Below, piece by piece: positions 2,920 to 28,193 of a stretch of DNA of 64,000 nt. The position numbers were made by a program, and so were the translations under genes. Below the pieces are notes generated by a model. It was not told the DNA's origin. It saw nothing but the letters and a program-made list of their open reading frames with translations, and did no database searches. Source of the stretch: Acidimicrobiia bacterium (GTDB lineage: Bacteria > Actinomycetota > Acidimicrobiia > Spongiisociales > Spongiisociaceae); contig JBFGLM010000013.1 in NCBI GenBank assembly GCA_041576165.1, forward strand, positions 1 through 64,000, read 5' to 3'. Numbering within the stretch: position 1 is the first letter of the stretch; each line of letters begins with the position of its first letter.

Positions 2920-2978
2920 TTTAGATCGGCCATGGCATCTGGTGGGCTGATTCCCAGCAGTTGCTGAGGAGATCACAG

Positions 2979-7576: not shown

Positions 7577-7652
7577 GCACGAGGCGGCTTGTGCCGCCGG
7601 GCATGCACCTCGCTGCAACTTCGTAGGGCGGCTGGGCGCTACCGTCATTTTC

Positions 7653-8805: not shown

Positions 8806-11613
8806 TTACTCGAGCCGCTCCTCGGGAGATTCCTCTGTGGGTCCGTTCTGGGCGGTCGGCACCCGGTACGCGTCCGGTGTGGGCTTGGTCGGGCGGGCGA
8901 ACCATTCCGGCCGGCGGAGGCCGCCCGGCCCGGGACCCGGTTTGGTCAGCCGCAGCCACTCACGGTAGATCTCGATCGATTTGCCGGTGTCCGCCACGAC
9001 ATCCCCATAGCGATCACCCGGCTCGGCATGCGACAGTCGAACACGCTGATGCCACGCGTGCATACCTGACACCGGATCCGGATGGGGCGGGAACGCGAGA
9101 TTCTGGTTGACGCCGGCGTCGGACCACCAGATACGCTCCGAGTCCGGGTCGTCCGAGGAGAAGGGCTCGATCCCCTTCTTCTGCCGGAGCCGCCAGCGGC
9201 CATTGTCCAGCTTCTCGACATCCACGAGCGCAGAAGACCAGCGCTCGTTGCCCTGCTCGTCAAACAGCCGCCACCGCCCCATGTGGTGAGATGCGGCGAC
9301 CACCCCGGGCCGGATGCCCTCCGTGCGCCAGATCCGCATCACGAAATAGCCGGAGTCTGTAGTGATGCGGATCAGGTCGCCGGTGTCGAAGCCCAGTTCG
9401 TCGGCGTCGCTGGGATGTACCCACAGCGGATGCCCGTGGCTGATCTCATATAGATACTTCGCATTGCCCGAGCGAGTGTGGATCAAGGTGGGGAGCCGGA
9501 AGATCGGCAGCAGGATCCGCTCGTTGCCGGCCAGATCGAGGTCGCGCCAGTACACGTGGGTGTGGAGGTACGTCGGGATCGCCTCATCGTGCCATCCCCA
9601 TTCGTGCATGGTGGGCGACCACCATTCCAGGCGCTTCGACGGCGACGCGAAACCCTTCATGGGCGTCCCGTCAACGTCGACCCCCGTCACGGCGCCGTCC
9701 TTGCGGGCGAAGCCGTCCATTCCCACGTTGTCCGCCTCGACGGACTGTTCGTGCACGTTGTAGACGTCGGTGGCGATCTCGACGGCTCCGTATTTGCGCA
9801 TGTATTCCAGCGGAGTGAGCCCCTCGGCCTCAGCTTTGTCCGGGAGACCCGGGACCGAACGCTCGAACATCCAGCCGTAGTATTCGTCGACCGAGATCGG
9901 TCGGCTCGGATCGTTCGGAGATTCGAACCATTGCTTGATGCCGAGCGAGCCGTCGGGGTCGACCCGCCATGAGAGGTCGATCCAGAACTCGGTCTCCTCC
10001 CATACCTCACCCGGGTTGGCCTCATATGTGCGCTGGAACACCTGCCCGTCCCGCTCGCCTGCTACCCGCAGGACCGGCTGGCGGAAGCCGAGCCACTGGG
10101 CGGCATGAGTTTCGTATGAATGGGTGTCGTGCCGCTCGCTTCCGACCCCCATGGGCAACACATAGTCGGCGTATTGCGCCGTCTCGGACCAGGTCGGCGT
10201 GAGCGCGACGTGGAGGCCGACTTTGTCCTCGTCGGTCAGCAGCTCGATCCAGGAGAACCCGTCGGGGTTGGTCCATACCGGGTTGTAGACGCGGGTGAAG
10301 TACACCTCGAGCCGCCCGCGTCCTTCCTGGATCAGATAAGGGAGCAGGAACGACATCTCGTGGTGCGCAAATGGGTATTCGGGCGGCCAGAGCAATTCGT
10401 TCCAGCGGCTGTGCGGCGGCGGCATGTTCCAGTGAGCAGGCTTGAACTTGCCCCAGGCGCTGGGCGAGGTGCCGCCTTTGGTCCCCACCGATCCGGTCAG
10501 TACGTGCAGGAGCCATAGGCAGCGGGCGGCTTGCCAGCCGCCGAGGTTCCCGGAGCCGGTCGACCGCCAGGTGTGAGAGGCGAAGCGAGTGCCGGCGTCC
10601 TGGATGCCGTCCACGACCGCAACGATTCGCTCGACAGGTACACCGCACTCTTCTGCCGCCCACTCGAGCGAGTAATCGTTGTACGTCTCCTTGAGTAGGT
10701 CGATGAAGGCCTCGAAGCGGATAGCGTCTGGGCGGGCATGGGCCATGACCTCTTCCCAGTTGACCCAGCGGCGGATGAAATCACGGTCGATGGCATCGCG
10801 CTGGAGCAGTTCCCGAGCGATTGCCAGGAACAACGCCGGCTCGGTGCCGGGCCAGGTCGATAGCCAAATGTCTGACATGGAGGCGGTGTTGGACAGGCGG
10901 GGATCGATTGTGGCCAGCTTCGCACCGGCCTGTTTGCCCTCGATGATCCGCTGGGCGTGGGGATTGAAGTAATGGCCCGTCTCGAGGTGACTTGACAGCA
11001 ACAGGATGAACTTGGCATTGGCGAAGTCCGCCGAGGGCCGGTCGTGTCCCATCCACAAGGCGTACCCGGTGCGGGCCCCGGCCGAGCAGATGTTGGTGTG
11101 GCTGTTGTGGCCGTCGACGCCCCAGGCGCGCAAGGTCCGCTCCATGAAACCATCCTCACCAGGACGGCCAACGTGGTACATGATCTCGTCGTGGCGATCC
11201 TCCTGGAGAGCAGTGCGCATCCGTTCCGCGATGTCGGCCAGCGCGTCCTCCCAGGAGACTCGTTCCCAGCCGCCGTCACCCCGGGAACCGGTCCGCTTGA
11301 GCGGGTAGAGGATGCGTTCGGGGTCATACATCTGGTTGAGGGTGGCGGGGCCTTTGGCGCAGTTGCGGCCCCGCGATCCGGGATGGGCCGGATTGCCCTC
11401 GAACTTGCGGACCTCGCCGGTGTCCCGATCAACGTAGGCCAGCAGCCCACAGGCCGACTCACAGTTGAAACACGTGGTCGGCACCAGTCGGTAGCGGTGC
11501 GCCACCTTGTCGGGCCAGGCGCGGGCGTCGTACTCCTCCCAATCGTCCCAGCGATCGGGCGGCGGATAATTGGTCAGCCCTTGAGGATGCAGCCTCGGAA
11601 TCTCAGTCGTCAT
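8806..11613 (-). CDS. Molybdopterin (bis-MGD) oxidoreductase catalytic subunit, DMSO-reductase family, no Tat signal
   Basis: TTCFNCESACG...RNCAKG Fe-S motif, HTNICS, IDPRLSNTA, ADYVLP, IHTRS; GGAGG RBS before ATG 11613. Confidence 0.92.
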   Translation of the reverse strand: MTTEIPRLHPQGLTNYPPPDRWDDWEEYDARAWPDKVAHRYRLVPTTCFNCESACGLLAYVDRDTGEVRKFEGNPAHPGSRGRNCAKGPATLNQMYDPERILYPLKRTGSRGDGGWERVSWEDALADIAERMRTALQEDRHDEIMYHVGRPGEDGFMERTLRAWGVDGHNSHTNICSAGARTGYALWMGHDRPSADFANAKFILLLSSHLETGHYFNPHAQRIIEGKQAGAKLATIDPRLSNTASMSDIWLSTWPGTEPALFLAIARELLQRDAIDRDFIRRWVNWEEVMAHARPDAIRFEAFIDLLKETYNDYSLEWAAEECGVPVERIVAVVDGIQDAGTRFASHTWRSTGSGNLGGWQAARCLWLLHVLTGSVGTKGGTSPSAWGKFKPAHWNMPPPHSRWNELLWPPEYPFAHHEMSFLLPYLIQEGRGRLEVYFTRVYNPVWTNPDGFSWIELLTDEDKVGLHVALTPTWSETAQYADYVLPMGVGSERHDTHSYETHAAQWLGFRQPVLRVAGERDGQVFQRTYEANPGEVWEETEFWIDLSWRVDPDGSLGIKQWFESPNDPSRPISVDEYYGWMFERSVPGLPDKAEAEGLTPLEYMRKYGAVEIATDVYNVHEQSVEADNVGMDGFARKDGAVTGVDVDGTPMKGFASPSKRLEWWSPTMHEWGWHDEAIPTYLHTHVYWRDLDLAGNERILLPIFRLPTLIHTRSGNAKYLYEISHGHPLWVHPSDADELGFDTGDLIRITTDSGYFVMRIWRTEGIRPGVVAASHHMGRWRLFDEQGNERWSSALVDVEKLDNGRWRLRQKKGIEPFSSDDPDSERIWWSDAGVNQNLAFPPHPDPVSGMHAWHQRVRLSHAEPGDRYGDVVADTGKSIEIYREWLRLTKPGPGPGGLRRPEWFARPTKPTPDAYRVPTAQNGPTEESPEERLE

Positions 11614-11723
11614 TTCCGGCCTGCCTCCGTTTCTCGACTTCGTCGCAGCGCACGAGGAGGGGTCACGTACGGCGGCCGGGCACCCAGCGCACCACCCGCT
11701 CCCCCAGCCGCGCCGACCCTCAT
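11610..11723 (-). CDS. Possible 37-aa linker ORF coupled at both ends
   Basis: ATGA overlap with the NrfD-fusion stop and ATGA overlap with the Mo-subunit start. Confidence 0.3.
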   Translation of the reverse strand: MRVGAAGGAGGALGARPPYVTPPRALRRSRETEAGRK

Positions 11724-13324
11724 GAGAGCGGCACCGCCTGCCCCGCCCGCACCAAGGCATCGTCGGCGAACCAGATGCCCGCCATCGCAGCAAGACCACC
11801 CAACGAGGCAAGTGCGTCCTGGCCAGTCGCCAGGCTCACCCACCCGGCGGCAATGGGAACCGTCACCCCGAGCAACTGGCCGCCCACCCACCAGCGGAGG
11901 GCAAAGTGGCCCCGGGTGAGGTGATGCATGGCCGCCTCGACATTGCGAGTCGGGTGCCGGCTGAGCAGGTCTCCCAGCGCCAGCAACCCGAGCGCAGCGG
12001 CTCCGCCGATCATGGCCCAGACAAACGCCTCGAATCCGTCTGGGCTGATCACCCGCCGTGTGACCGCCCCCGAACCGGCGTCGTACAAGATGGTGCTGAA
12101 CACTGCCGCTGCACCACCGCCGACTGCGAATGCTCCCGCCAGCATGTGCCACAGAAGCATCGGGCTCTGCCACAGGTCCCGCGCCTCTGCCTGGCCGAAG
12201 AGAAACGCCGTATATCCGGCAGTGGCCAGCGCCAGCGGCACTCCGACCGACAGCATGACCTTCACGAGGCCGACGTTGCCCATCAGCCCGGCGACAAACC
12301 AGATACCCAGCACAGCCGCGTAGGCGCCGAGGATCCACGCACCCCGCACCAGCCACGAGCCGGGGTTCCCCTTGGTCAGGAGGTAGTAGAACCGGTCGGG
12401 TCGCTTGAGGTCGGCCACCAGCAGCGCCCCGGTCGCGAGCAGGAAGATGCCGGCGATGAGCGGAGTGCCCCAGCGGGCCCAGTTGGTCTGCATGTCTGCT
12501 CCCGCCCACCAGGCCAGCGCCAGCGCCAGCACCAGGCCCGCCGAGATACCCTTCGTGAGGAAGTAGCTCGACACCCGCCAACCCCAAGGGGCCGGATGGT
12601 CGGTGTTGTAGGTCACCCGGGGCGGCTCGTGATCGCGGCGCAGCGTCCCCGGCCCGGCCGCCGGCCGGTCCCCGTTGGGGGGAGTGAGATCGACTGCCAG
12701 CCATGACGAGCCGGGCTCCGTGTCGCGCCAGATTCCGCCGCCGTCTCCCAGCGTCGTGGCGGCGAGCGGGTCGAGGTTGGCTGCCTCAGCGCCCTTGTAC
12801 CACAGGTTGGGTGCCGTTCCCTGCTCGGGCGCCCGCTGGAACAGCGTGTCGGTCGCAACCATGTGTGAGATGACGGTGGTCGGGTCGTGCAGGTCCCCGG
12901 CAATGATTGCTTGTTCCGGACATACGACGACACAGGCCGGCTCGATCCCAACCTCCACCCGATGGGCGCAGTAGTTGCACTTTTGCGCAGTGTGCTCGTC
13001 CGGGTCGATGTACAACGCATCGTACGGGCAGGCCTGCATACAGCTCTTGCACCCGATACAGCGATCCGTGTCGAAATCGACAATGCCGTCCTTGCGGGTG
13101 TAGAGCGCCTTGGTGGGGCAGATCGCCACACAGGGGGCGTTGGAACAGTGGTTGCAGCGCATCACCGAAAAGAAGCGCTTCGTGTCGGGCCATTCACCCT
13201 TCTCGACGTACTTGACCCAAGTTCGGTTGACCCCGAGGGCCACGTTGTGTTCCGTCTTGCAGGCGACTGTGCAGGCGTGGCAACCGATGCACTTCGTCTG
13301 ATCGATCACGAATCCGTACTGCAC
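11720..13324 (-). CDS. 4Fe-4S dicluster (DmsB/NrfC-like) fused to an NrfD/PsrC-like membrane anchor
   Basis: CIGCHACTVAC, CNHCSNAPCVAICP, CIGCKSCMQACP, KCNYC...PACVVVCP; hydrophobic C-terminal half with DLKRPDRF and SWLVRG; AGGAG RBS before GTG 13324. Confidence 0.92.
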   Translation of the reverse strand: MQYGFVIDQTKCIGCHACTVACKTEHNVALGVNRTWVKYVEKGEWPDTKRFFSVMRCNHCSNAPCVAICPTKALYTRKDGIVDFDTDRCIGCKSCMQACPYDALYIDPDEHTAQKCNYCAHRVEVGIEPACVVVCPEQAIIAGDLHDPTTVISHMVATDTLFQRAPEQGTAPNLWYKGAEAANLDPLAATTLGDGGGIWRDTEPGSSWLAVDLTPPNGDRPAAGPGTLRRDHEPPRVTYNTDHPAPWGWRVSSYFLTKGISAGLVLALALAWWAGADMQTNWARWGTPLIAGIFLLATGALLVADLKRPDRFYYLLTKGNPGSWLVRGAWILGAYAAVLGIWFVAGLMGNVGLVKVMLSVGVPLALATAGYTAFLFGQAEARDLWQSPMLLWHMLAGAFAVGGGAAAVFSTILYDAGSGAVTRRVISPDGFEAFVWAMIGGAAALGLLALGDLLSRHPTRNVEAAMHHLTRGHFALRWWVGGQLLGVTVPIAAGWVSLATGQDALASLGGLAAMAGIWFADDALVRAGQAVPLS

Positions 13325-13418
13325 ACCGCTCCTCACCCGACCGTGCGACTACGAGCAACCTCGTGGAACGTACTCACGCCCGTCACCGCGCATTCTCGAT
13401 TCTGACACAGCACAATGC

Positions 13419-13435
13419 AAAAGTCCGTACAAATT
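13419..13435. promoter_or_regulatory. AT-flanked GTCCGTAC operator-like site, copy 1
   Basis: AAAAGTCCGTACAAATT in the divergent intergenic region; same core recurs inverted at 14511. Confidence 0.45.
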
Positions 13436-13652
13436 CGTAGACGGCTCCATACAATACTGACAAACACATTTCGGAGCAGCACGTGAGCGATACCGCCAAT
13501 CCCCGCTGGACCCTGGTCAAGCGATCACGATGCGTGGCGACGCCTCCAGTGCGGCTTCGGCAAACATGCCGGTCGGACCGGAACCGCGCCCAACTGACCC
13601 GCACGCTGCCCCACCGGCGCGCGAGCATGGAGCTGGCGACGGAGGTGTACTG

Positions 13653-14450
13653 ATGCGCCGGATCGTGCTGGTGGTGATCCTTGTCCTGGCTGCCTGCGGG
13701 CAAGGCGAGTCGGTGGAGGTCCGACCGTTTGAGGAGATCCAGGCGTCGGATGTCACCTTTGAGAACGATCCGACCTTCCCCGGGAGGGCCATCATGCGCG
13801 TGACCACCACCGAACCGGCCATCTGCGCGATCGTCTGGGGCGAGGCCGAGACGCTCGGTCAGATGAACAACAGCCTCAACATGAACGGCACCGGGATAAT
13901 CCAGCACGATGTGTTGCTGCCCGGTGCCGAAGCCGGGCAAACGTACTTCTACCGGCTGCAAGGATCCACCGCCGACGGCACTCTGTTCCAGTCCGATCTC
14001 ATGACGTTCACGCTGCCCGCGGCCGACCCGGCGGCGCAAGCTGATGCTCCCGGCGGGGCCAATCTTGCCCTCGAGGCGACGATCACCGACGTCAGCAGCG
14101 AATTCTCGGACTCATGGGCCGCCGCCAACGCCATCGATGGCGACCTAGCCACCGAATGGTCGACGGCAGGCGACGGAGATGAGGGATACATCGTCGTGGA
14201 CCTCGGTCGATCGCACACGGTCGCCGTGCTCGAATTCATGACCCGGACGATGGCCGACGGCTCTGCCACCACAACCACCTATACAGTGACCGTTGATGGC
14301 AGCGATCCGCTCGGCCCCTTCGACGCAGGCAATCCCGCCGACCGCAAACTGGTGCCCGTATCGGTCACAGGCCGCGTATTCCGCTTCGACGTCCAGGATT
14401 CGACCGGCGGCAACACGGGCGCCATCGAGATCGGTATCTACGAGCAATGA
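13653..14450 (+). CDS. Lipoprotein with a C-terminal discoidin (F5/8 type C) domain
   Basis: GGAGG RBS; lipobox LAAC; NLALEA...SSEF...NAIDGDLATEWST...VDLG...EIGIY. Confidence 0.85.
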   Translation: MRRIVLVVILVLAACGQGESVEVRPFEEIQASDVTFENDPTFPGRAIMRVTTTEPAICAIVWGEAETLGQMNNSLNMNGTGIIQHDVLLPGAEAGQTYFYRLQGSTADGTLFQSDLMTFTLPAADPAAQADAPGGANLALEATITDVSSEFSDSWAAANAIDGDLATEWSTAGDGDEGYIVVDLGRSHTVAVLEFMTRTMADGSATTTTYTVTVDGSDPLGPFDAGNPADRKLVPVSVTGRVFRFDVQDSTGGNTGAIEIGIYEQ

Positions 14451-14504
14451 GGCCGCTCTACTCTCCCGAAAGGGGCCGCCCCGGCACAAGCCTGTTCAAG
14501 TCGA

Positions 14505-14526
14505 TAGAATAAAAGTACGGACATTT
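14505..14526 (+). promoter_or_regulatory. -10 box (TAGAAT) followed by operator-like site, copy 2
   Basis: TAGAAT-AAAAGTACGGACATTT upstream of the MBL-rhodanese gene. Confidence 0.5.
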
Positions 14527-14560
14527 AGGCAGGAGCAACGACGCAGGCGAGGAGCGCTCG

Positions 14561-15901
14561 ATGAAGATCACCAACATTCGAACACCGGGTTTGGGCGACG
14601 CCACCTACATCCTGTCCCACGAAGGCGTATCGGTGATCGTCGATCCGCAGCGGGATGTGGAGCGCTTCCTGGCAGCCACTGAGGACACGATCGTGCGGAT
14701 GGTCCTCGAGACCCATCTGCACAACGACTACGTGTCCGGAGGCCGGGATGCCGCCCGCCGGACCGGCGCCGAGTTGATCGTGCCGGCCGCGGCTGCCCCG
14801 GCGTATCGGCATACCCCGGCCTTTCATCTGGAGGACATCGCAGCCGGCCCTTTCATCGTGCGCCCGATCCACACGCCCGGGCACACCCCAGAACACACGT
14901 CGTATCTCATCGTCGTGGACGGTGAACCGCTGGCACTCTTCAGCGGCGGATCGTTGCTCGTGGGCTCGGCCGGCCGCCCCGATTTGCTCGGCACAGAGCG
15001 AGCCGACTCACTGGCGCGGCTCCAGTACATCTCGGTCACCCGCCTGGCCGAGCTGCCCGACGAGGTCGAACTACTCCCGACCCACGGCGAGGGTTCGTTC
15101 TGCACCGTGTCCGGCGCCGGCCGCACCACATCCACCATCGGCGAAGAGAAAAAGAGCAACCCTGTGCTGCATTTCGCCGACGCCGAAGCGTTTGTCAAAG
15201 CGCAACTCGCCGAATTGCAACCGTATCCCACCTACTACCGGCACATGGGGCCCGCCAACTTGATGGGTTTTGCACCAATGCCCGCGACAGGCCCCGAGCA
15301 GGTCAGCATCGATGAACTGGATGCGCTGGCGGATGTCACGCTGATCGACATCCGCCCCAAGCAAGAGTATGCCGACGCTCATATTCCCGGCTCGATCGGA
15401 CTGGAGATGGGCGACCAGGTCGGTGTGTGGGCCGGCTGGCTGCTTCCCCACGACGCGCACATCGTGCTGATCGCGAATCACGATCAGGACGTCGAGGAGG
15501 CGGCTGCCCAGTTCGCTCGGATCGGCATGGACGGGCTCATTGGAGTCCACTACGGGATCGGCGATTGGACGGCGGCCGGCCGCCCCACCGCCGGCCATGG
15601 CACAGTGGACGTTGAAGGCTTCGTCGAGGCGTACCGGCGGGGCGAAGTAACCAACCTGCTCGATGTGCGTGCGCCCAGTGAGTTCGAAGCCGGCAGCCTG
15701 GACGGAGCTATCTGGCGGTATCTGCCGGACCTGGCACAGAATATGCCGGACGGCCTCGATGGAGCGCATCCTGTCTGGGTAGCGTGCGCGAGCGGCTACC
15801 GCGCCAACGCCGCCGTTCGGTTCATCGAACAGGCCGGCTACGAAGCAGTGGTGCTGATCGGCGGTGGGATCCCCAACGTTCTCGCCGCACTACAGCGTTG
15901 A
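14561..15901 (+). CDS. MBL-fold hydrolase / persulfide dioxygenase-like domain fused to two rhodanese domains (CstB-like architecture)
   Basis: ETHLHNDYVSG, HTPGHTPEH, PTHGEGSFC, DIRP...HIPGS, DVR...CASGYRA. Confidence 0.88.
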   Translation: MKITNIRTPGLGDATYILSHEGVSVIVDPQRDVERFLAATEDTIVRMVLETHLHNDYVSGGRDAARRTGAELIVPAAAAPAYRHTPAFHLEDIAAGPFIVRPIHTPGHTPEHTSYLIVVDGEPLALFSGGSLLVGSAGRPDLLGTERADSLARLQYISVTRLAELPDEVELLPTHGEGSFCTVSGAGRTTSTIGEEKKSNPVLHFADAEAFVKAQLAELQPYPTYYRHMGPANLMGFAPMPATGPEQVSIDELDALADVTLIDIRPKQEYADAHIPGSIGLEMGDQVGVWAGWLLPHDAHIVLIANHDQDVEEAAAQFARIGMDGLIGVHYGIGDWTAAGRPTAGHGTVDVEGFVEAYRRGEVTNLLDVRAPSEFEAGSLDGAIWRYLPDLAQNMPDGLDGAHPVWVACASGYRANAAVRFIEQAGYEAVVLIGGGIPNVLAALQR

Positions 15902-16049
15902 GCTCAACCCCACCCGGCGCGTCGCCGGTGATCTCGGTTTGTGCCCTCGCCCGCCCGAGGGTGGGCATTTCCTGTCCGGAACGCCGAACGCACGCCGGGG
16001 GTGGCAAGCCCCGAAGCGTGACATATTGCACTCCGCCCGGCTGCCGACC

Positions 16050-17555
16050 ATGACGCGCTCTGCGAAGTACCGGTTTGGGTTCCATGACGTGGTCGCCGGA
16101 GTCAGCGTGGCCCTGGTGGTCATCCCCCAAAGCTTGGCGTATGCCGAGATCGCCGGTATGCCGCCCTACACCGGCCTGTACGCGGCGGCCCTACCGGCGA
16201 TTGCCGCGGCTCCGCTGGCGTCGTCCCGCTACCTACAGACCGGTCCTGTGGCCATGACGGCCCTGCTGTCGTTCGGAGCACTGTCGGCGATCGCCGAACC
16301 CGCCACCGACGAGTACGTCGGACTCGCCATGCTGCTCGCGATCGTCGTGGGCGTGGCCCGGTTGGCGCTGGGAGCCGTGAAGGGCGGAATGATCACGAAC
16401 TACATGTCGCCCTCCGTGGTGCTCGGCTTCACCACTGCGGCCACGCTGCTGATCGTCGCCTCGCAGAGTGCCCTAGTTGTGGGCCTACCCGATCCCGATT
16501 CCGATCTGATGCGGCGGGCGGTGGACGTGGTCGCCAACCCGGGCACGTGGAACTGGGAGGCGCTGGCGCTGAGTGTGGTCGTGGCGATTGTCATCATCGG
16601 CGGGCGCCGCGTCCACCCACTGTTCCCGGGGGTCTTGCTGGCAGTGGTTGTCGGCATCGCCGTCTCGGCCGCCACCAGCTACTCGGGAGAGCTGGTCGGT
16701 CAGATCCCGGCTGGATTCCCCCCGTTCTCCCTGTCCTTGCCGTGGAGCCGGATCCCGGAGCTGGTGGTCCCCGGCATCATCATCGCCGCGGTTGGCTTCG
16801 CCGAGCCGACCGCCATCGCCCGCACAATGGCGGTGCACGACCGGGAGCGATGGGATGCATCCCGGGAGCTGATCAGCCAGGGCTTAGCCAACGTCGCCAG
16901 CGGCATATCCGGCGGATTCCCGGTCGGGGGGTCCTTTTCCCGCAGCTCGATCAACCGGGTAGCTGGAGCGAGGTCGCCGTGGGCGGGCGCCGTGACCGGG
17001 CTGGCGGTGCTGGCATTCATGCCCTTCGCCGGTGTGCTGGCCGAGCTCCCGCTGGCCGTATTGGGTGGCATTGTCATCGTGGCGGTGTTCGGGCTGATCC
17101 GGATCCCCGATATGGTGCGTCTGGCCCGCGTGTCGTGGGGTCAGGCCTTCGTGGCCTGGTCGACTGCGGCAGCCACCATCCTGCTGTCACCCAGGGTGGA
17201 CCTGGCAGTCCTCTTTGGAGTTCTGGTCGCTGCCGGCGTCCACATCTATCGGGAGTCGTCACGCACCCGGGTGGTCACCAACTTCAAGGAGCCCGAACTC
17301 GAGATCCGGCTCGGCGGCGTCCTGTTTTACGCCTCGGTCGGTGCGCTGGAAGAGGCGCTGACTGAGCAGGTAGCGGCGAACCCCACCGTTGAACGCTTGG
17401 TACTGGACCTGGGCCGGCTCGGTCGCATCGATCACTCGGGGGTCATGATGCTCCGGACCTTCGTGAACGAGGCGCGCCTGGCCGGCCTCGAGGTGCGGGT
17501 GGCGAACATCCCCAGCCATGCTCAGGGGATATTTCAGCGGGTCGGCGGAATCTGA
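16050..17555 (+). CDS. SulP family anion transporter with STAS domain
   Basis: AGVSVALVVIPQSLAYAEIAG, TGPVA, GGSFSRS, C-terminal LDL...IDHSG. Confidence 0.93.
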   Translation: MTRSAKYRFGFHDVVAGVSVALVVIPQSLAYAEIAGMPPYTGLYAAALPAIAAAPLASSRYLQTGPVAMTALLSFGALSAIAEPATDEYVGLAMLLAIVVGVARLALGAVKGGMITNYMSPSVVLGFTTAATLLIVASQSALVVGLPDPDSDLMRRAVDVVANPGTWNWEALALSVVVAIVIIGGRRVHPLFPGVLLAVVVGIAVSAATSYSGELVGQIPAGFPPFSLSLPWSRIPELVVPGIIIAAVGFAEPTAIARTMAVHDRERWDASRELISQGLANVASGISGGFPVGGSFSRSSINRVAGARSPWAGAVTGLAVLAFMPFAGVLAELPLAVLGGIVIVAVFGLIRIPDMVRLARVSWGQAFVAWSTAAATILLSPRVDLAVLFGVLVAAGVHIYRESSRTRVVTNFKEPELEIRLGGVLFYASVGALEEALTEQVAANPTVERLVLDLGRLGRIDHSGVMMLRTFVNEARLAGLEVRVANIPSHAQGIFQRVGGI

Positions 17556-17583
17556 GTGGCCGGCGCCTCCCGGGCACGAGTTT

Positions 17584-17619
17584 GAGCTGTGCCCCGGCGG
17601 AGGCACCGGGGCACAGCTC
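17584..17619. terminator. Perfect 14-bp hairpin, probable bidirectional terminator
   Basis: GAGCTGTGCCCCGG-cggaggca-CCGGGGCACAGCTC downstream of sulP. Confidence 0.75.
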
Positions 17620-18064
17620 GATGACGTCCGGCTAGGACCCCGACGCGCCTGAGCGCATCACCCAGGAATAGCGATACACAAGGTGATGCGTCATTGAGAT
17701 CCGTCCTCGTTGGTGTGACGGACGGATGAGAGGACGGCCCGGCTCGCCGAGATCCGTGATTGCGCGGACGCCGCGACCAGGGGACCGAACGTGCCAACAG
17801 GCCAGGTAGTACGCCCCATCAGTGACGGATTCCGTGAGTTCGAGAACTCAGGGAAGCAGGGCGACAACACGCCTGCGACGGCAGGGCCAAAGGCCACACA
17901 CCAGTGCAGCACCGATCCGCACGACACGCGCCGTGCAGATGGTTCGGTAGTGGTTTTCGACTCTTCGACCACGGGATGCCCCCTGACCTACTTGGAAGAT
18001 CGACGGGTGTCAGCGGGGCCTTGAGGAAATTCTCACCAAATCCAGAAAGAGTTTGCGGCCGCGT

Positions 18065-19135
18065 TCAGCGCTTGAGCTCGGCCCGCAGCGGCCCGTGATC
18101 GAGACGCGGCAGGACGTACCGCGCCACCAGATCGGCCTCGTTCAGATGCGGGTAACCGGAGAGGATGAAGCCGTCGACTCCGGCCTCCCGGTATGCCCCC
18201 AGCTTGGCGACGACCTGGTCCGGGTCGCCGACGATGGCGGCGCCGGCCCCGCTGCGGGCCCGCCCGATGCCGGTCCACAGGTGATCCTCGGCGAAACCAT
18301 CGTCGTCGCTGTCGTCCCGTAAGCTGGCTTGTCGCTGCACGCCGACCGAGGTTGCATCCAGCGAACGCTGCCGGATCTCGCGGCCGACCTCGTCCTCCAG
18401 CTTCGAGACCAGTCGGGCGGCGGCGCCACGGGCCTCCGCTTCGGTCCCACGGACGATCACGTGCGTACGGAGCCCGTACTGGAGGGTGCGGCCGTGCCGT
18501 GCGGCGCGTTCGGTCATCTCCTTGATGGTTGCTCCAACGGCCGAGACGGTGTCCGGCCATGTCAGGAAGACGTCGGCGGCTGCCGCGGCCGTCTCTTTGG
18601 CGGCTTCTGAGAAGCCACCGAAATAGAACGGAGGGCAGACTCCCGATACCGGTCTCACCCTGGGCGGCTCCAGCTGTAAGTCGAGAAACTCGCCGTGATA
18701 GTCGACCGATTCGCCGTTGAGCAGCGCCCGCAGGACCTGCATCCACTCGAGCGTTCGCTGGTAGCGGGGCGCAGACTCCAGTGTTTCCCCTGGAATGTCG
18801 CTCGAAATGATGTTGACGGTCAGCCGGCCGTCGAGCATCTGGTCGAGGGTGGCGAGCTGGCGGGCCAATTGCGGTACCCACATCTCGCCCATCCGCACTG
18901 CCGTGAGCAGCTGCATGCGGCGGATCTGGGGCGCCACGGCCGCCGCAAAGGCGATCGTGTCGATCCCCAACGTGTAGCCAGACGGGAGCAGTATGTTGTC
19001 GAACCCGAGTCGGTCGGCCGCCAGCACGATGTTGCGGCAATGCTCGTAGCTCGATCGAAGCATCGGTTCGGGCACCCCCAGGAACTCGTAGTCGTCGTCG
19101 CATAAGGCCCCGAACCAGGAGATTTCGACGCTCAC
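18065..19135 (-). CDS. LLM-class flavin monooxygenase, sulfoquinovose monooxygenase-like (SmoC/SquD)
   Basis: SWFGALCDDDYEFLGVP...LRSSYEHC, NIISSDIPGE, LWTGIGRARSG, FILSGYPHL match my recollection of the SmoC subfamily. Confidence 0.8.
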   Translation of the reverse strand: MSVEISWFGALCDDDYEFLGVPEPMLRSSYEHCRNIVLAADRLGFDNILLPSGYTLGIDTIAFAAAVAPQIRRMQLLTAVRMGEMWVPQLARQLATLDQMLDGRLTVNIISSDIPGETLESAPRYQRTLEWMQVLRALLNGESVDYHGEFLDLQLEPPRVRPVSGVCPPFYFGGFSEAAKETAAAAADVFLTWPDTVSAVGATIKEMTERAARHGRTLQYGLRTHVIVRGTEAEARGAAARLVSKLEDEVGREIRQRSLDATSVGVQRQASLRDDSDDDGFAEDHLWTGIGRARSGAGAAIVGDPDQVVAKLGAYREAGVDGFILSGYPHLNEADLVARYVLPRLDHGPLRAELKR

Positions 19136-20043
19136 GGCAACGGGACTCCTTCTGAGGCTTCGATGATGTCGTAGACATCGTTTCGGTTCAGGCGGACGTC
19201 GAGTGCCGCGACGGCGGCTCGGATGCGGTCCAGATTCTGCGTGCCGATGATCGCCACAGGCTTGGAGGGATGAGCCAGCACGAAGGCCAACGCCACGGCC
19301 GATCGGTCGGTGCCTTCTCGCTCAGCCAGGCGGTCCAGCGTCTCCACCAGTTCGGCGCGGGTGCCCTCGCCGTGGGCCAGGGCACCGCCCCCCAGTGGAC
19401 TCCACGCCAGCGGCGTGACTTTGTCCCGCATCAGCCGGTCAAACTCGCCATTACGCAGCGGCTCGAGGTGGACCGCCGAGTACTGTGGCTGGCTGGTGGC
19501 AATTGGGAAGGGCAGATAGGACGTCAGTGCGTCGTACTGGGCGAGCGTGAAGTTGGACACCCCCACTTCCCGGATCTTGCCTTGTTCGCGCAGCGCCGCC
19601 AGCGTCGTCGCCAGCTCTTCGGGATGGGTGAACAGATCGGGTCGGTGGATCTGATATAGGTCGATCATGTCTGTGCCCAGCCGCCGGAGCGATTCATCGA
19701 CTGCAGACCGCAGGTAATCGCTGCCGGAGTCATAAGGAACCGGAGGGGTGATACCACCCTTGGTGGCCAAGATGATCCGATCGCGCAGATTAGGGGCGTC
19801 GGCCAACACGGCGCCGAGGAGCTCCTCGGCGCGCCCGAACCCGGTTCCTCCCCAATCGAGACCGTACACGTCTGCGGTGTCGATCAGGTTCATTCGTGCC
19901 ACGAGGGCGGTCTCTATGCGATCCCGGGCCTCGGCGGGCGACATCTGGACGAATCGCCAGCAGCCGAACGCCAGTGGCCCGGTAGTCATGCCTGACGAGC
20001 CAATAGGACGCGGACCCGAGTTCGTGAGGTTTGGCGCAGTCAC
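19132..20043 (-). CDS. Aldo/keto reductase, 6-dehydroglucose reductase-like (SmoB/SquF)
   Basis: DTADVYG, ATKGG, IHRPD, GVSNF, AWSPLGGG; GTGA-coupled to the monooxygenase. Confidence 0.8.
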   Translation of the reverse strand: MTAPNLTNSGPRPIGSSGMTTGPLAFGCWRFVQMSPAEARDRIETALVARMNLIDTADVYGLDWGGTGFGRAEELLGAVLADAPNLRDRIILATKGGITPPVPYDSGSDYLRSAVDESLRRLGTDMIDLYQIHRPDLFTHPEELATTLAALREQGKIREVGVSNFTLAQYDALTSYLPFPIATSQPQYSAVHLEPLRNGEFDRLMRDKVTPLAWSPLGGGALAHGEGTRAELVETLDRLAEREGTDRSAVALAFVLAHPSKPVAIIGTQNLDRIRAAVAALDVRLNRNDVYDIIEASEGVPLP

Positions 20044-20090
20044 CGACGTATCCTATCGGCCGGAGAATGCCGACACGTCAGGCGTAGGTC

Positions 20091-21155
20091 ATGGACGAGA
20101 TCAGGATCGGGATCGTCGGCTCGGGCATGATGGGGCTCGAGCATATCGCCAACATCAATGCCATCCCCGGCGCCCGCGTCGCTGCGCTGGCAGACCCTCA
20201 CAACCCGTCCCTCGACGCGGCAGAAGTGCTGTCGATCACGCCGGTCGCGCGTTTCAGCGATCACCGCGATCTGGCCAAGGCCCAGACGTGCGATGCGGTG
20301 ATTGTCGCGACTCCGAACATGACGCACACCCAGGTGTTGATAGACCTGCTGGCGACCGACTTGCACGTCCTCGTCGAGAAACCGCTCTGCACCACGGTGT
20401 CCGACTGCCGGCGGGTCATCTCCGCAGCCGACGGCCGTGCCCCGATCACCTGGGTCGGCCTGGAGTACCGCTATATGCCCCCCGTCGCCCGCCTGATCGA
20501 CGAGGTTGCGGCCGGAACCGTCGGGTCCGTGCGGATGGTCGCAATCCGAGAACATCGCTTTCCGTTTCTTCCGAAGGTGGGCGATTGGAACCGCTTCAAT
20601 GAGAACACCGGCGGCACGTTCGTAGAGAAGTGCTGTCATTTCTTCGACCTCATGAATCTGGTGGCCGGCTCGGCGCCACTCCGGGTGATGGCGTCCGGCG
20701 GCCAGGACGTCAACCATCTGGAGGAACGTTACGACGGGCGGCGGCCCGACATCCTCGACAACGCATACGTGATCGTCGAATACGACAACGGCGTTCGGGC
20801 GATGCTCGATCTATGCATGTTCGCCGAGGGCGGCCGCCATCAGGAAGAGGTTGTCGTAGTGGGCGACAAAGGCAAAGCTGAGGCCTACCTACCTTCGTCA
20901 GAGCTCTCGATCGGCCTCCGTAGCTCATCGTGGTTTTCACCGACCACCGAGGTGGTCCATAATTGCGACGCTCGAGTGCCGGGCCACCACCACGGTTCTT
21001 CCTACATCGAGGATCTGCGGTTTGTGGAGGCGATTCGGTCCGGGACCCCGCCGGAGGTCACCCTCGACGACGGTCTGATGTCGGTCGCCGTGGGGGTGGC
21101 GGCCCACCGCTCGATTGACGAACAGCGCGCGGTCTACCTCTCCGAGGTGATGTGA
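20091..21155 (+). CDS. Gfo/Idh/MocA-fold protein, NAD+-dependent sulfoquinovosidase-like (GH188/SqgA)
   Basis: GSGMMG, EKPL, EHRFPFLPKVGDWNRF, GGTFVEKCCHFFDLM, HHG; divergent from the SmoB/C-like genes. Confidence 0.75.
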   Translation: MDEIRIGIVGSGMMGLEHIANINAIPGARVAALADPHNPSLDAAEVLSITPVARFSDHRDLAKAQTCDAVIVATPNMTHTQVLIDLLATDLHVLVEKPLCTTVSDCRRVISAADGRAPITWVGLEYRYMPPVARLIDEVAAGTVGSVRMVAIREHRFPFLPKVGDWNRFNENTGGTFVEKCCHFFDLMNLVAGSAPLRVMASGGQDVNHLEERYDGRRPDILDNAYVIVEYDNGVRAMLDLCMFAEGGRHQEEVVVVGDKGKAEAYLPSSELSIGLRSSSWFSPTTEVVHNCDARVPGHHHGSSYIEDLRFVEAIRSGTPPEVTLDDGLMSVAVGVAAHRSIDEQRAVYLSEVM

Positions 21156-23932
21156 CCGAGCCCGACCGCAACGGGCGTCTGCGGGCGCTGCTCCGATACT
21201 TCGCGACGCTGGCCCGACCCGCCCGGGAGCAGCGTGCCGGTCTACTGGACGGTTCCAAGACCATGTCTGAGATGGTCTACATGGGTGATGACCTCGAGTG
21301 GATCGACCAGCCCGTCTCCTACATTGCCGATTTCGGTGCCGACCGGCTCCCTGCCCTCTCGAAGCTCTCCAGCATCCAGAGCCTGCACGAAGGAGAGCAG
21401 GTGCTCTACGCCGGCTGGCCCTGGCTCTCGGGCACGGTGCCGGTCGATGGGGAGGAAACCCGCGTCTGCCTGCCTGTCCTGGAAGCTGCGGTTGATGTGT
21501 CGCCCAACCGCCTCGGGCTGGGTTATCGGGTGCGGCTGGTCGGCCCGCCCGAGCCGACCCCGCTATTGGCGGACACCTCGGAGGAGTTGTGGGACATATT
21601 CGAAGCCGTTGCCGCTCCGGTCTCGAAGCGGCGTGGGGACGGGTCGGCTGAGGAACGCCTTGCGGCGGCTTTGTGGGACCGGCTGCGGGACGAGCTCGAG
21701 GTGCTTGCACATATCCCCGAGGTCGCGGTGGCCGACAACCTGCCGACCCGGCTGCGGTCGCATCCCGGCTTACACCTGGTGCTCGGAGCAGCGCTCTACG
21801 TGAAAAGTGGCGTCCGGCCGGGCTCGCGCAGCCATGAGCTGCTTGCCGCCCGGGACGTGAGGCTGGCGGGGACCGCGCTCGACGTTGTGTACAACGGCGC
21901 ACCGGGCACCGGTCCCGTTCGTGAACGCCGAGTCGTGGAAACGACCTCGCTCACCCGGCCTCAACATGTGGCGACTGCCTCCGCCCTCAATCGGGACCTC
22001 ACCGTGGTCGCCGGGCCACCGGGGACCGGAAAGACCCACGCAGCAGTGGCCGCAGCGCTGGCCGCAGTCGGTCACGGCGATTCTGTGTTGATCGCCACGA
22101 CCTCCAGGTTCGCTGCCGACGTCATCGCCCAACGCTTCCGAACGGTTCCCGGGTTGCGTTTCTTCCGGTTTGGTTCCGAGGAGCGGCCCGCGCTGCTCGA
22201 GGCGAAGGAGTCAGACACCCCGCAACCGGGCGGCGTCCAAGGAGGTGAGTTGTACGGGGCGGTGGCCCAGGACCTTCGCTCGGAAGCCGATCTCGAGCGC
22301 GCCCTCCGCACCCGCCGGCGGGCGATGGCGTTCGGGGCGGTTCCCCGCTCCGACGTCGACCTCTCCAAAGTGGGTAAGTGGGTGGCTCGAGCAGATGGAC
22401 ACGGGTGGTGGGCCACCCGTGTCCGGCGCAAAGCCCAGAAGGCGCTGGCGATGCCGCCCGACACCTCGCTCGAACAGCTCCGACAGGCTCTGGAATTCCA
22501 GCACGCCGAGCGGTTGATCGAAACGGTCATCAGGACCGGGGGCGTCTCGCTCGATGCGGTATGGGCCGACCTCGAACAAGCGGTGGACGAACGGCACCAC
22601 CGCGGCCGCCGGTGGGTTGCGTCGACCTCGGCCCCGGCCGCCCAGTCGCAGGTGCTGGCCACGTTGGACACGGCGTTGCGGGCAGGGCCTACGGCCCGGC
22701 GTCGCAAGCTAGCCGCCATGAAGTCGGCCCAAATCACGGCCAGTCTCCCGCTGTGGATCGGCACGCTGACCGAGATCAGCGAGTACTTGCCGCTGGCGCC
22801 CGCCATGTTCGACCTGCTGATCATGGATGAGGCTTCTCATACGAACCAGCTCGATGCGATCCCAGCGCTGGTGCGAGCCCAGCGGGCCATGATCCTGGGC
22901 GACCCGAGACAGCTTCGCCACGTGTCGTTTGTTGGCGATGAGCACATGACGGCTGCAGCCGGGACCGCTGCCCTGGGGGACGACCTCGCGCTGAAAGCCG
23001 ACATCCGCCGGAACAGCGCGTTCGATGTGGCGTCGATGGCGGGTCCGGCCGTGTGGCTCAACGAGCACCACCGCTCTGCGCCGCACATCATCAATTTCTC
23101 GGCGCAGCGGTTCTACGACGGCCTCATCATCATGACCCGGCACCCGCACAACGAGACGCTGGACCTCATCCACACCGAGCATGTGCCGGATGGTGCATTT
23201 GACCGCGGGCTGAACACCGCGGAGGCCAATCGGGTCGAAGACCTGATCCGCCGGCTCGATTCGGGCGGTCCCGGGTCGATCGGGGTTGTGACACCCTTCC
23301 GCAACCAAGCAGACCTCCTCGAAGAGCGAATGCTGAACCGCTTCGATGACGCGGACATCCGCCGCCTGCGGCTACGGGTGGGCACGGTGCACGGTTTCCA
23401 AGGCAACCAGCGCGACACGATGATCATCTCGACTGTCGTGAGTCCGGACAACCTGAGTGCGCTGCGGTTCGTCGAGGATCCGAACCTGTTCAATGTGATG
23501 GTCACCCGGGCTCGTCTGAGCGTGTGGCTGGTTACTTCGGTGACCGCCGACGACCTTCCCCGCAACGGCCTGCTCGCCGAATACCTCCGCCATGCCGACG
23601 AGAAGCCCGTGGAACTGTTCACCACATCACCTGACGAAGGCTGGACGACTGAGGTTTTCACTGCGCTCCGGGGTTACGACATGCGGGTGGTTCCGGAATA
23701 CCCGGTCGGCCCGTACACGATTGATCTGGTGATCGGGGAGGGACCTGCGGCGATCGGGGTCGAGACGCGGGTGCACGACGGGGGTATCGGCGCCCACATC
23801 GAGCGCCATCTCGCACTGCGCCGGGCCGGGTGGACGCTCATCGACGCGTTTGAAAGCCGGTGGATGACCCGGCCCGAGGCGGCCGCACAGCACATTGCCG
23901 AGATGGCGGTTCGGGCGACCAGGAGCCTCTAG
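21152..23932 (+). CDS. Superfamily 1 (DNA2/NAM7-like) helicase with a C-terminal restriction-endonuclease-like domain
   Basis: GPPGTGKT, MDEAS, GDPRQL, HHRS, TVHGFQG, NVMVTRAR; EYPVGPYTIDLVI...GVE. Confidence 0.85.
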   Translation: MTEPDRNGRLRALLRYFATLARPAREQRAGLLDGSKTMSEMVYMGDDLEWIDQPVSYIADFGADRLPALSKLSSIQSLHEGEQVLYAGWPWLSGTVPVDGEETRVCLPVLEAAVDVSPNRLGLGYRVRLVGPPEPTPLLADTSEELWDIFEAVAAPVSKRRGDGSAEERLAAALWDRLRDELEVLAHIPEVAVADNLPTRLRSHPGLHLVLGAALYVKSGVRPGSRSHELLAARDVRLAGTALDVVYNGAPGTGPVRERRVVETTSLTRPQHVATASALNRDLTVVAGPPGTGKTHAAVAAALAAVGHGDSVLIATTSRFAADVIAQRFRTVPGLRFFRFGSEERPALLEAKESDTPQPGGVQGGELYGAVAQDLRSEADLERALRTRRRAMAFGAVPRSDVDLSKVGKWVARADGHGWWATRVRRKAQKALAMPPDTSLEQLRQALEFQHAERLIETVIRTGGVSLDAVWADLEQAVDERHHRGRRWVASTSAPAAQSQVLATLDTALRAGPTARRRKLAAMKSAQITASLPLWIGTLTEISEYLPLAPAMFDLLIMDEASHTNQLDAIPALVRAQRAMILGDPRQLRHVSFVGDEHMTAAAGTAALGDDLALKADIRRNSAFDVASMAGPAVWLNEHHRSAPHIINFSAQRFYDGLIIMTRHPHNETLDLIHTEHVPDGAFDRGLNTAEANRVEDLIRRLDSGGPGSIGVVTPFRNQADLLEERMLNRFDDADIRRLRLRVGTVHGFQGNQRDTMIISTVVSPDNLSALRFVEDPNLFNVMVTRARLSVWLVTSVTADDLPRNGLLAEYLRHADEKPVELFTTSPDEGWTTEVFTALRGYDMRVVPEYPVGPYTIDLVIGEGPAAIGVETRVHDGGIGAHIERHLALRRAGWTLIDAFESRWMTRPEAAAQHIAEMAVRATRSL

Positions 23933-28054: not shown

Positions 28055-28136
28055 CGGTTGCTGCCTCCCTTGGATGCTCGAACACTCACCCTAGAGCCAC
28101 AGCTCTCCTCATGCCTCGGAACTGCCGCGAAACACG

Positions 28137-28164
28137 GCGGGCGCCGGTAGTCACCGGCGCCCGC
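28137..28164. terminator. Intercistronic hairpin after the binding-protein gene
   Basis: GCGGGCGCCGGT-agtc-ACCGGCGCCCGC, perfect 12-bp stem. Confidence 0.7.
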
Positions 28165-28193
28165 TTGTTCGTCGGTCAGTTCATCAACCGACC

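Follow-up and report, generated by a model that had tools for sequence, protein, structure and literature searches.

Sulfoquinovose genes beside a molybdenum oxidoreductase operon in an Acidimicrobiia genome: probably two independently inherited modules

Genes predicted to release sulfite from sulfoquinovose (SQ) and genes for a membrane-bound molybdenum enzyme stand next to each other in a 64,000-nucleotide stretch (hereafter the window; positions 1 to 64,000 of contig JBFGLM010000013.1, GenBank assembly GCA_041576165.1) from an Acidimicrobiia bacterium, which raises the question of whether the block at 8,806–21,155 encodes a single system. An earlier sequence-only reading had proposed one integrated island, in which a sulfosugar would be converted to glucose, the sulfite would be oxidised into the respiratory chain and sulfate would be exported. 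Comparison with related genomes indicated that the block is probably made of two independently inherited modules, which abut by chance or through a recent rearrangement. The eight gene types named in that reading were all borne out by the open reading frame (ORF) listing and by Pfam and NCBIfam scans (Table 1). Module A comprises a Mo-bisPGD catalytic subunit, an FeS-NrfD fusion, a discoidin lipoprotein, an MBL-rhodanese and a SulP transporter, and module B comprises a luciferase-like monooxygenase (LLM), an aldo-keto reductase (AKR) and a Gfo/Idh/MocA protein. The two modules were found tail to tail with a 510-bp spacer between them, across which the plus-strand unit ending in SulP and the minus-strand AKR-LLM pair converge. 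The right border first drawn for the block proved too narrow, as the sulfoquinovose module runs on to 29699 and its ABC importer lies outside the block. The G+C content of the window was approximately 65%.

The linkage of the two modules was evaluated at loci of other genomes. Genes for SmoC, SmoB-orthologous and SqgA-like proteins were found at none of 20 Mo loci, and the Mo, FeS-NrfD, MBL-rhodanese and SulP genes were found at none of 80 SmoC loci. Synteny had been put forward along with the island as a check, with unlinked halves in relatives named as the outcome that would speak against it; the halves were unlinked at all 100 related loci (20 Mo and 80 SmoC), and the single integrated island could not be upheld. 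Among the 41 genomes of the window's bacterium and its relatives, the Mo gene was present in 26 and SmoC in only two, the window's own genome and G004, where SmoC lies on a contig other than that of the Mo gene. The Mo gene occurred in 27 of 45 SmoC-carrying Acidimicrobiia-type genomes, the same proportion as in the relatives (26/41). In six single-contig genomes, the Mo and SmoC loci were approximately 0.1 to 2 Mb apart. The halves are inherited independently in relatives and therefore, in all probability, do not constitute one integrated system.

The junction itself was assessed using public sequencing runs. A Logan contig of run X1 spans 16683–18229 with zero differences, and in runs X1, X4 and X5 reads covered the two halves to an even depth; the junction is therefore no obvious assembly chimera. 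Run X1 is possibly the source sample, so its contig does not amount to independent proof of the junction. The contigs of runs X4, X5 and X6 included no listed piece bridging 17555–18065, which counts neither way. The GC-rich hairpin that follows SulP (Table 1) likely marks the end of the left transcription unit, and a scan of 17300–18300 for consensus promoters and terminators found nothing, with no T-run terminator. Contigs in X1, X4 and X5 were also observed to match the window up to about 17422–17489, at the 3′ end of the SulP gene, and then to diverge from it; it seems that SulP has another neighbour in related populations of these samples.

The three enzymes of module B matched characterised SQ enzymes best, with wide margins for two of them. 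The best solved chains for the LLM were RoSmoC 7OH2 (371 bits) and SmoC 7OLF (363 bits), the sulfoquinovose monooxygenase codes of Sharma et al. 2022 (PMC8795539). Chains 7jv3, 1nqk and 1m41, deposited as alkanesulfonate monooxygenase, scored 222–237 bits and the dimethylsulfone monooxygenase 8t0u 96 bits, and the LLM fell under the NCBIfam cut-off for SsuD (268 against 518). All seven FMN- and sulfonate-binding residues given in PMC8795539 were identical in the HMMER alignment, namely, in RoSmoC numbering, Tyr136 and Ser189 for the FMN phosphate and Trp206, Arg236, His238, Tyr341 and His343 for the sulfonate. These seven are common to MsuD and SsuD, and SQ specificity is therefore not proven by them. 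Taken together, the LLM is predicted to be a SmoC-like FMNH2-dependent sulfoquinovose monooxygenase, closer to SmoC than to SsuD, MsuD or SfnG. The AKR matched SmoB chains 7BBY and 7BBZ best (169 bits), with a small margin over the next chain, 7twz (151 bits). It keeps eight of ten SmoB residues described in PMC8795539 (the tetrad Asp71, Tyr76, Lys104 and His151 along with Arg152, Trp232, Thr284 and Arg289), and departs from SmoB in that the glucose-contacting Lys120 falls in a 9-residue deletion and the NADPH-contacting Phe241 is replaced by Ala. The closest counterpart of the AKR is SmoB, and it is predicted to convert 6-oxo-glucose to glucose; its stop codon overlaps the SmoC-like start by 4 nt.

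The SmoC and SmoB calls of the sequence-only reading were thus supported, and the sulfoquinovosidase it had missed turned out to be the Gfo/Idh/MocA protein itself. The best solved chains for this protein were ArSqgA 8QC3 (333 bits) and FlSqgA 8QC2 (320 bits), the SqgA codes of Kaur et al. 2023 (PMC10755693), together with 8zn9 (319 bits), whose identity was not checked, and the next chain scored 107 bits. All eight catalytic and sulfonate-binding residues listed in PMC10755693 were identical, with a chain offset of 13 checked on all eight (ArSqgA numbering: Lys107, Tyr136, Glu189, His193 and His321, and the triad Arg166, Leu170 through its backbone, and Lys172). A search for GH31 (PF01055) returned no match in the window's genome, which is 96.5% complete, while a control search was positive in 6 of 14 named genomes. 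Because of the SqgA matches, the conserved residues and the GH31 result, the Gfo/Idh/MocA gene is predicted to encode the sulfoquinovosidase of the cluster, an NAD+-dependent GH188 enzyme. Flavin reductase genes (Flavin_Reduct) were absent from the window's contig, with three found elsewhere in the genome on contigs C10, C14 and C18, and none was seen among the recurrent neighbours of the 80 SmoC loci.

The SmoC neighbourhoods of other genomes covered approximately 10 kb around the gene where the contig allowed, and 80 loci encoding a 65–76% identical SmoC-like protein were kept of 554 stretches matched with a relative. These loci were mostly from Acidimicrobiia, the rest being other Actinomycetota, some Alphaproteobacteria, one Myxococcota and one Acidobacteriaceae. 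An AKR gene accompanied SmoC at 64 of the 80 loci and an SqgA-like gene at 44. Orthologues of the window's importer, with identity of up to 84%, stood beside SmoC as well (permease 1 at 39 loci, permease 2 at 31, the binding protein at 32), and further recurrent neighbours were a MalK-type ATPase (24), a GH13 enzyme (14) and a LacI regulator (13). The importer at 25137–29699 is thus the transporter that accompanies SmoC clusters, and its substrate would be SQ or SQ-glycerol; its binding protein gave no match to SmoF chains 7OFY and 7NBZ. Compact sulfo-SMO clusters with GH188 and a non-SmoF importer are therefore common in Acidimicrobiia. By homology to characterised enzymes and by synteny, it is highly probable that module B works as follows: the importer would take up SQ or SQ-glycerol, the GH188 SqgA-like enzyme would free SQ, the SmoC-like enzyme, using FMNH2 from a flavin reductase encoded elsewhere, would cut the C–S bond to give sulfite and 6-oxo-glucose, and the SmoB-like reductase would turn the latter into glucose.

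The Mo enzyme of module A had been described as a cytoplasm-facing Mo/FeS/NrfD complex, and this description was supported by the build of its subunits. No Tat signal was present on the Mo subunit in the window or in any of 39 scorable orthologues. The FeS-NrfD fusion consists of a four-cluster FeS part (residues ~1–190) and an eight-helix NrfD/PsrC-type part (~245–533); its FeS domain begins at residue 3, has no signal peptide ahead of it and runs directly into NrfD helix 1 with no added helix, and crude hydropathy analysis placed K/R-rich loops on the FeS side. Because of the missing Tat and signal peptides, the direct fusion to helix 1 and the position of these loops, the catalytic dimer should face the cytoplasm. 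Cys176, in the motif HTNICSAG, is the candidate Mo ligand; it aligns with the Cys173 column of chain 2vpw and is followed by Ser, as in the SoeA-like reference group. Chain 2vpw is presumably PsrA, and its Cys173 is taken to be the Mo ligand. A cytoplasm-facing catalytic part has likewise been proposed for SoeABC (PMC8076601).

Orthologues of the Mo subunit with 73–81% identity were present in 25 of 40 relatives, and a survey of 301 genomes sampled from the phylum detected the gene in 30, a tally that includes the unpublished genome G407. The FeS-NrfD gene adjoined it in 19 of 20 relatives by tblastn and at 38 of 41 loci by ORF clustering. Thermomicrobium roseum carries a homologue with 59.6% identity, located after a fused FeS-NrfD gene and a CsoR-like regulator; the pair in strain DSM 5159 is TRD_RS12030 and TRD_RS12035. 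Proteins 46–52% identical to P0126, a deep member of the clade, bear database names from Acidobacteriota and Dormibacterota too. Three Tat-bearing proteins (P0128, P0163 and P0151) were seen to nest in the Mo clade while keeping a YPPF-x-x-W-like N-terminal motif, and orientation has therefore switched within the family. P0126, P0127 and P0151 have no putative Mo-ligand Cys in the alignment, and catalysis has perhaps changed within the family. At five loci of the order, the Mo gene is immediately followed by the gene for a conserved soluble protein of approximately 265 amino acids (AA) with no Pfam family (Table 1), whose homologue in the window's genome lies on another contig (C17:71341–72018). 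This protein is possibly an assembly chaperone, because a NarJ/TorD-like gene holds that position in the wider phylum.

The tie of the Mo complex to MBL-rhodanese and SulP that had been proposed was kept in relatives. Neighbouring genes were surveyed by ORF clustering and Pfam/NCBIfam scans at 41 Mo loci (20 of the order, 20 of the wider phylum and that of T. roseum). Besides the fused FeS-NrfD (38 loci), the recurrent neighbours were SulP (16), an ArsR-family regulator (14), a CstB-type MBL-rhodanese (14), a DsrE2-like protein (11), a type III SQR-like protein (8), a NarJ/TorD-like chaperone (7) and a rhodanese-MBL protein (4). At least one gene of six sulfur-linked kinds, which include SulP, the dioxygenase-rhodanese, SQR-like, DsrE2 and ArsR genes, occurred at 27 of the 41 loci and at 19 of the 20 from the wider phylum. 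The second-best NCBIfam match of the ArsR-family regulator was "sulfite-sensing BigR", under the cut-off. Loci L140 and L154 carry a co-directional string of SulP, MBL-rhodanese, SQR-like, FeS-NrfD and Mo subunit genes, and locus L146 has the same divergent layout as the window. A SulP with 50–52% identity stood beside the Mo operon at 4 of 20 order-level loci, and tblastn with the SulP found next to the Mo operon of relatives (E ≤ 1e-8) matched a single gene in the window's genome, the SulP of module A. A homologue of the discoidin lipoprotein was found at none of the 20 order-level Mo loci.

The MBL-rhodanese matched solved chains 3tp9 (180 bits) and 3r2u (142 bits) best. It consists of an MBL domain and two rhodanese-type stretches by Pfam (rhodanese-homology and rhodanese) over 446 AA, compared to approximately 444 AA in CstB. 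Its Cys409-x4-Arg414 compares with C408 and R413 of CstB, and its Cys181 in a Gly-rich loop is followed by Thr, whereas CstB has Cys201-Gly202, all CstB positions being those of PMC12934615 and compared by residue number. Further sulfur genes were observed elsewhere in the window's genome: a divergent ArsR-DsrE2 pair and a second MBL-rhodanese paralogue (36% identical) on contig C23 (C23:57698–59002 and C23:13665–14972), an SQR-like gene adjoining another DsrE2 gene (C26:16177–18920), and a MobA homologue on C18. In the window's lineage, an ancestral sulfur cluster was apparently split apart. The module A cluster recurs across Actinomycetota, and module A itself is likely part of a sulfide/persulfide oxidation cluster.

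The family identity of the Mo subunit was examined by profile searches and by phylogeny. The best NCBIfam models were DmsA/YnfE (181 bits) and PhsA (178 bits), with cut-offs near 700–780, none of which was reached, and the best solved chain was the Thermus chain 2vpw (119 bits), deposited as a thiosulfate reductase. The alphaproteobacterial relatives were of two kinds: Tat-bearing proteins of ~850–900 AA (190–240 bits) and proteins of 940–1040 AA (105–124 bits). Five of the second kind lie in Tat-less three-gene operons with A of ~970–1025 AA, B of ~250 AA and C of ~300–320 AA, the last called in four. A quick maximum-likelihood tree of 36 rows was constructed with this SoeABC-like group, a plasmid-borne PhsA, a TtrA and a DmsA-family protein as references; P0197, P0137 and P0168 were left out for fragmentary or aberrant N-termini, the deep branch order was unresolved and long branches were present. 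The window's Mo protein fell in a 13-row clade (SH-aLRT 100) with other Acidimicrobiia, T. roseum and six representatives from a database search. A Phaeobacter plasmid match tried as a SoeA reference proved not to be SoeA. ESM Atlas cluster names for the subunit were generic ("molybdopterin oxidoreductase", "putative formate dehydrogenase"); the cluster members of 10 distant representatives bore no SoeA, Psr or Chlorobi labels, and the homologue search from P0126 showed a wide phyletic spread with no Chlorobi names. The aligned ligand Cys is followed by His in the formate dehydrogenase chain 9vap, a residue we take to be catalytic and defining for formate dehydrogenase, and the Cys-Ser of the Mo subunit therefore argues against the "formate dehydrogenase" label. 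In an alphaproteobacterial SoeABC-like locus, a gene for an MBL-fold protein of 287 AA (L120:1972–2835) was seen divergent from the soeA-like gene (beside L120:2952–7646), a pair that may parallel the dioxygenase-Mo pairing.

Based on these neighbourhoods, a working of module A could be proposed in which SQR-like, persulfide dioxygenase-rhodanese and DsrE2 proteins and an ArsR/BigR-like regulator accompany the Mo/FeS-NrfD enzyme and SulP in relatives. The Mo enzyme would oxidise cytoplasmic sulfite to sulfate and pass the electrons to quinone, and SulP would export the sulfate. This assignment is credible, though it falls a little short of being probable. On this reading, the Mo enzyme would act as SoeABC does while standing outside the SoeA-like clade. 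We infer the substrate of the Mo enzyme, the direction of SulP and the flow of SmoC-derived sulfite into module A. SQ-derived sulfite would be released in the same compartment as the Mo enzyme, and a metabolic hand-over between the modules is therefore plausible, although not encoded as a conserved unit. More tentatively still, the Tat-less two-gene Mo/(FeS-NrfD) enzyme may be a second lineage of cytoplasm-facing sulfur-oxyanion:quinone oxidoreductases, separate from SoeABC. It would then carry out the missing last step of heterotrophic sulfide oxidation by SQR and persulfide dioxygenase (sulfite or thiosulfate to sulfate, with energy gained via quinone and export by SulP), here also draining SQ-derived sulfite.

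Several points weigh against these interpretations. The comparison with SoeA that had been suggested was run as part of the phylogeny, and the Mo subunit was placed outside the SoeA-like clade (five proteins, SH-aLRT 100), with its own clade separate from PhsA, TtrA and the DmsA-family protein too; moreover, the SoeA label of the five alphaproteobacterial proteins was taken from operon architecture and not from characterised sequences. A sulfur-linked neighbour was kept at only 8 of the 20 Mo loci of the window's order, and the T. roseum locus has none, only the CsoR-like regulator. Staphylococcus aureus CstB yields thiosulfate and no sulfite (PMC12934615). The Mo enzyme could accordingly act on thiosulfate or a different sulfur compound, or have a reductase role, and a supply of sulfite by the dioxygenase may be too simple a picture. 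As for the independence of the modules, the adjacency could be selected and useful in this one lineage, with SmoC releasing sulfite in the compartment that the Mo enzyme faces.

A reductive role would make the Mo/FeS-NrfD complex a quinol-dependent reductase of cytoplasmic sulfane sulfur (polysulfide, persulfide, thiosulfate or tetrathionate), equivalent to Psr, Phs or Ttr turned inward. The best-scoring named families (DmsA/YnfE and PhsA) and the best chain, 2vpw, point in this direction, as do the Tat-bearing P0128 and P0163 nested inside the clade, the thiosulfate produced by CstB-type enzymes and the DsrE2 and rhodanese neighbours, which handle sulfane sulfur. However, the family scores are far under their cut-offs, and a reductase would run a futile cycle by consuming what the SQR and dioxygenase of its own clusters make. 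The recurrent pairing with SulP (16/41 loci) better suits an oxyanion end-product. T. roseum, an aerobe according to PMC6776052, also expresses its copy in transcriptome cultures. In the transcriptome supplement, trd_A0628 ("formate dehydrogenase") was unchanged in the stationary phase, A0629 was 1.56-fold up and A0630 was 2.3-fold up; the mapping of trd_A0628–A0630 to RefSeq genes was inferred from gene order and product names, and these data do not reveal the substrate. Overall, a reductase is unlikely, and sulfur-oxyanion oxidation remains the preferred reading of the Mo enzyme.

Less probable still is a single island under joint regulation, kept together by selection, whose Mo complex would oxidise the sulfite from SQ and whose SulP would export the sulfate. 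The SmoC chemistry described in PMC8795539 frees cytoplasmic sulfite, the Mo and FeS subunits lack export signals and at least one assembly bears out the junction. A precedent exists in Alteromonas macleodii, whose SQ cluster has its own sulfite dehydrogenase and sulfate transporter, both rising on SQ (PMC12780224). Against this stand the restriction of the adjacency to this window, the distances in the single-contig genomes and the equal proportions at genome level, all given above. Transcription of the two units is convergent with a hairpin between them, no shared regulator was found in the block and the SMO importer lies on the far side from module A. These findings leave two independently inherited modules as the favoured explanation of the block.

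A formate:quinone oxidoreductase ("FqoABC") is very improbable: Calisto and Pereira 2021 (PMC8076601) tentatively give formate oxidation to an NrfD-containing group in Actinobacteria, Chlorobi, Crenarchaeota and Chloroflexi, and some database records name clade members "formate dehydrogenase", but the Mo-ligand Cys is followed by Ser as against Cys-His in 9vap (which argues against the Fqo assignment as well, if this is the same family), the match to the actinobacterial formate dehydrogenase model (77 bits) is far below its cut-off (1400), and the genes around the Mo enzyme relate to sulfur and not to formate.

Table 1. Coordinates of the two modules, the features flanking them and the downstream protein of related Mo loci (window positions unless a locus is given)
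Feature	Coordinates	Strand	Basis and remarks
Mo-bisPGD catalytic subunit	8806-11613	-	935 AA; Pfam Molybdop_Fe4S4, Molybdopterin, Molydop_binding
FeS-NrfD fusion	11720-13336	-	Fer4_11 + NrfD in a single 538-AA frame (Pfam)
F5/8 type C (discoidin) lipoprotein	13530-14450	+	Pfam, C-terminal domain; first gene of plus-strand unit
CstB-type persulfide dioxygenase-rhodanese (MBL-rhodanese)	14561-15901	+	446 AA; Pfam and NCBIfam
SulP-family anion transporter with STAS domain	15864-17555	+	Pfam
Inverted repeat, perfect, 14 nt, GC-rich	17584-17619	.	29 nt past SulP stop
SmoC-like luciferase-like monooxygenase (LLM)	18065-19135	-	356 AA; solved-chain matches
SmoB-like aldo-keto reductase (AKR)	19132-20043	-	Solved-chain matches
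GH188 SqgA-like protein (Gfo/Idh/MocA)	20091-21155	+	Solved-chain matches; divergent from SmoB/SmoC pair
SF1 helicase-nuclease	21152-23932	+	Pfam
GHMP-family kinase	24096-25133	-	Pfam; last gene of importer unit
CUT1-type sugar ABC importer	25137-29699	-	Pfam; two permeases and binding protein
Importer permease 1	25137-26105	-	Pfam
Importer permease 2	26102-28054	-	Pfam
Importer sugar-binding protein	28194-29699	-	Pfam
~265-AA protein	L001:3205-4014, L002:15750-16550, L003:3039-3878, L018:2662-3459, L004:15696-16418		Alignment, 55 invariant columns

Some of the gene boundaries were refined. The start of the Mo subunit is most likely the ATG at 11613, giving the 935-AA form and not the ORF start of 8806–11811, because relatives align from residue 1–13 of that form. 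The lipoprotein shows a LAAC lipobox after an inner Met near 13653, which is its probable start. A longer ORF at 18033–19178 overlapping the LLM gene was without a family match, and the true LLM frame is that of the table. The sqgA gene and the importer are kept apart by the helicase-nuclease, a 187-AA ORF without a known family and the GHMP kinase, and these three separating genes were found at none of the 80 SmoC loci. The helicase (926 AA, SF1 with AAA_11 and AAA_12 domains and a C-terminal REase_MTES_1575 nuclease domain) overlaps the sqgA stop with its start by 4 nt and showed a weak NCBIfam likeness to the helicase parts of anti-phage ProA and Hhe; it would lie outside both modules and may be an inserted defence gene. 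The GHMP kinase follows the permease after a 3-nt gap, with only weak NCBIfam matches to mevalonate and heptose kinases, and could be a putative kinase for phosphorylation of the sugar product. The plus-strand region at 2961–8768, upstream of the Mo gene and opposite to it in strand, encodes a large fused pyruvate:ferredoxin oxidoreductase (1204 AA), a dihydroorotate-dehydrogenase-like protein (NF005741, 432 bits) and an M19 dipeptidase; these genes are not next to the Mo operon in relatives.

The sequence-only reading had regarded the system as undescribed in this lineage, and this was partly right. Frequent sulfo-SMO clusters in Actinomycetota were already reported in a 2026 ISME J paper (PMC13372026), to whose phylum-level remark the present SmoC survey adds gene-level detail. 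Literature on a Tat-less, fused-subunit Mo clade with SQR, persulfide dioxygenase/CstB-like and SulP neighbours was not found in a search that left most subscription journals outside. An SQ review (PMC13436972) lists SoeABC among the known systems of sulfite oxidation. The island is accordingly no new integrated system, and the original claim is to be marked down. What stands out is an inward-facing Mo clade that is repeatedly lined up, in an operon-like manner, with SQR-like, CstB-like and SulP genes and has a cultured member in T. roseum. Should it oxidise sulfite or thiosulfate, a gap would be closed in how aerobic heterotrophs complete sulfide detoxification and gain energy from it, and the "formate dehydrogenase" and "anaerobic dehydrogenase" database names of clade members would be corrected.

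Compared with the sulfo-SMO clusters of Agrobacterium tumefaciens (smoA-I) and Roseobacter, module B shares the translationally coupled SmoC-SmoB pair and a nearby ABC importer, and it has GH188 in place of GH31, as do the Roseobacter clusters described in PMC10755693. In contrast to these clusters, it includes no flavin reductase (SmoA) or regulator, its binding protein is not SmoF-like and its SmoB Lys120 loop is deleted. Its importer is split from the enzymes by three genes, and its host is an Acidimicrobiia-type actinobacterium.

PSRLC3 of the green sulfur bacteria is presumably a cytoplasmic and fused complex. This system (CT0494-0496), relabelled FqoABC by Calisto and Pereira, is described as an alternative sulfite-oxidising system in PMC6338057, and the "2 genes encoding PSRLC3" of one genome note (PMC5473276) maybe reflect a two-gene layout like the present one. 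The Fqo group, compared here by description only, is reported from Actinobacteria and Chloroflexi (PMC8076601). The Mo clade may correspond to this PSRLC3/Fqo group.

Relative to SoeABC of Allochromatium vinosum and Aquifex aeolicus, the Mo complex has in common the Mo-bisPGD and four-cluster FeS subunits, an NrfD-type anchor, no Tat signal, a Cys-Ser pair at the residue proposed to bind Mo (also found in the SoeA-like references) and a sulfur-oxidation context. A survey found SoeC only in Proteobacteria, Clostridia and Aquificae (PMC8076601). SoeABC has three separate subunits, whereas FeS and NrfD are fused in the window, as in 38 of the 41 clade loci, and the Mo subunit belongs to its own clade, scoring ~110–124 bits to SoeA-like proteins and ~190–240 bits to Tat-type relatives.

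The cst operon of S. aureus (CstR, CstA, CstB, SQR and TauE, the last of which we take to be part of it) and the SQR-PDO systems resemble module A in the three-domain dioxygenase-rhodanese with its rhodanese Cys/Arg positions, and the clusters of relatives also hold an SQR-like gene, a thiol-based repressor family and an anion exporter. They differ in that the regulator in relatives is ArsR/BigR-like and not CstR, and in that loop Cys181 is followed by Thr and not by Gly. In addition, module A brings in the Mo/FeS-NrfD respiratory enzyme, and SulP takes the place of TauE.

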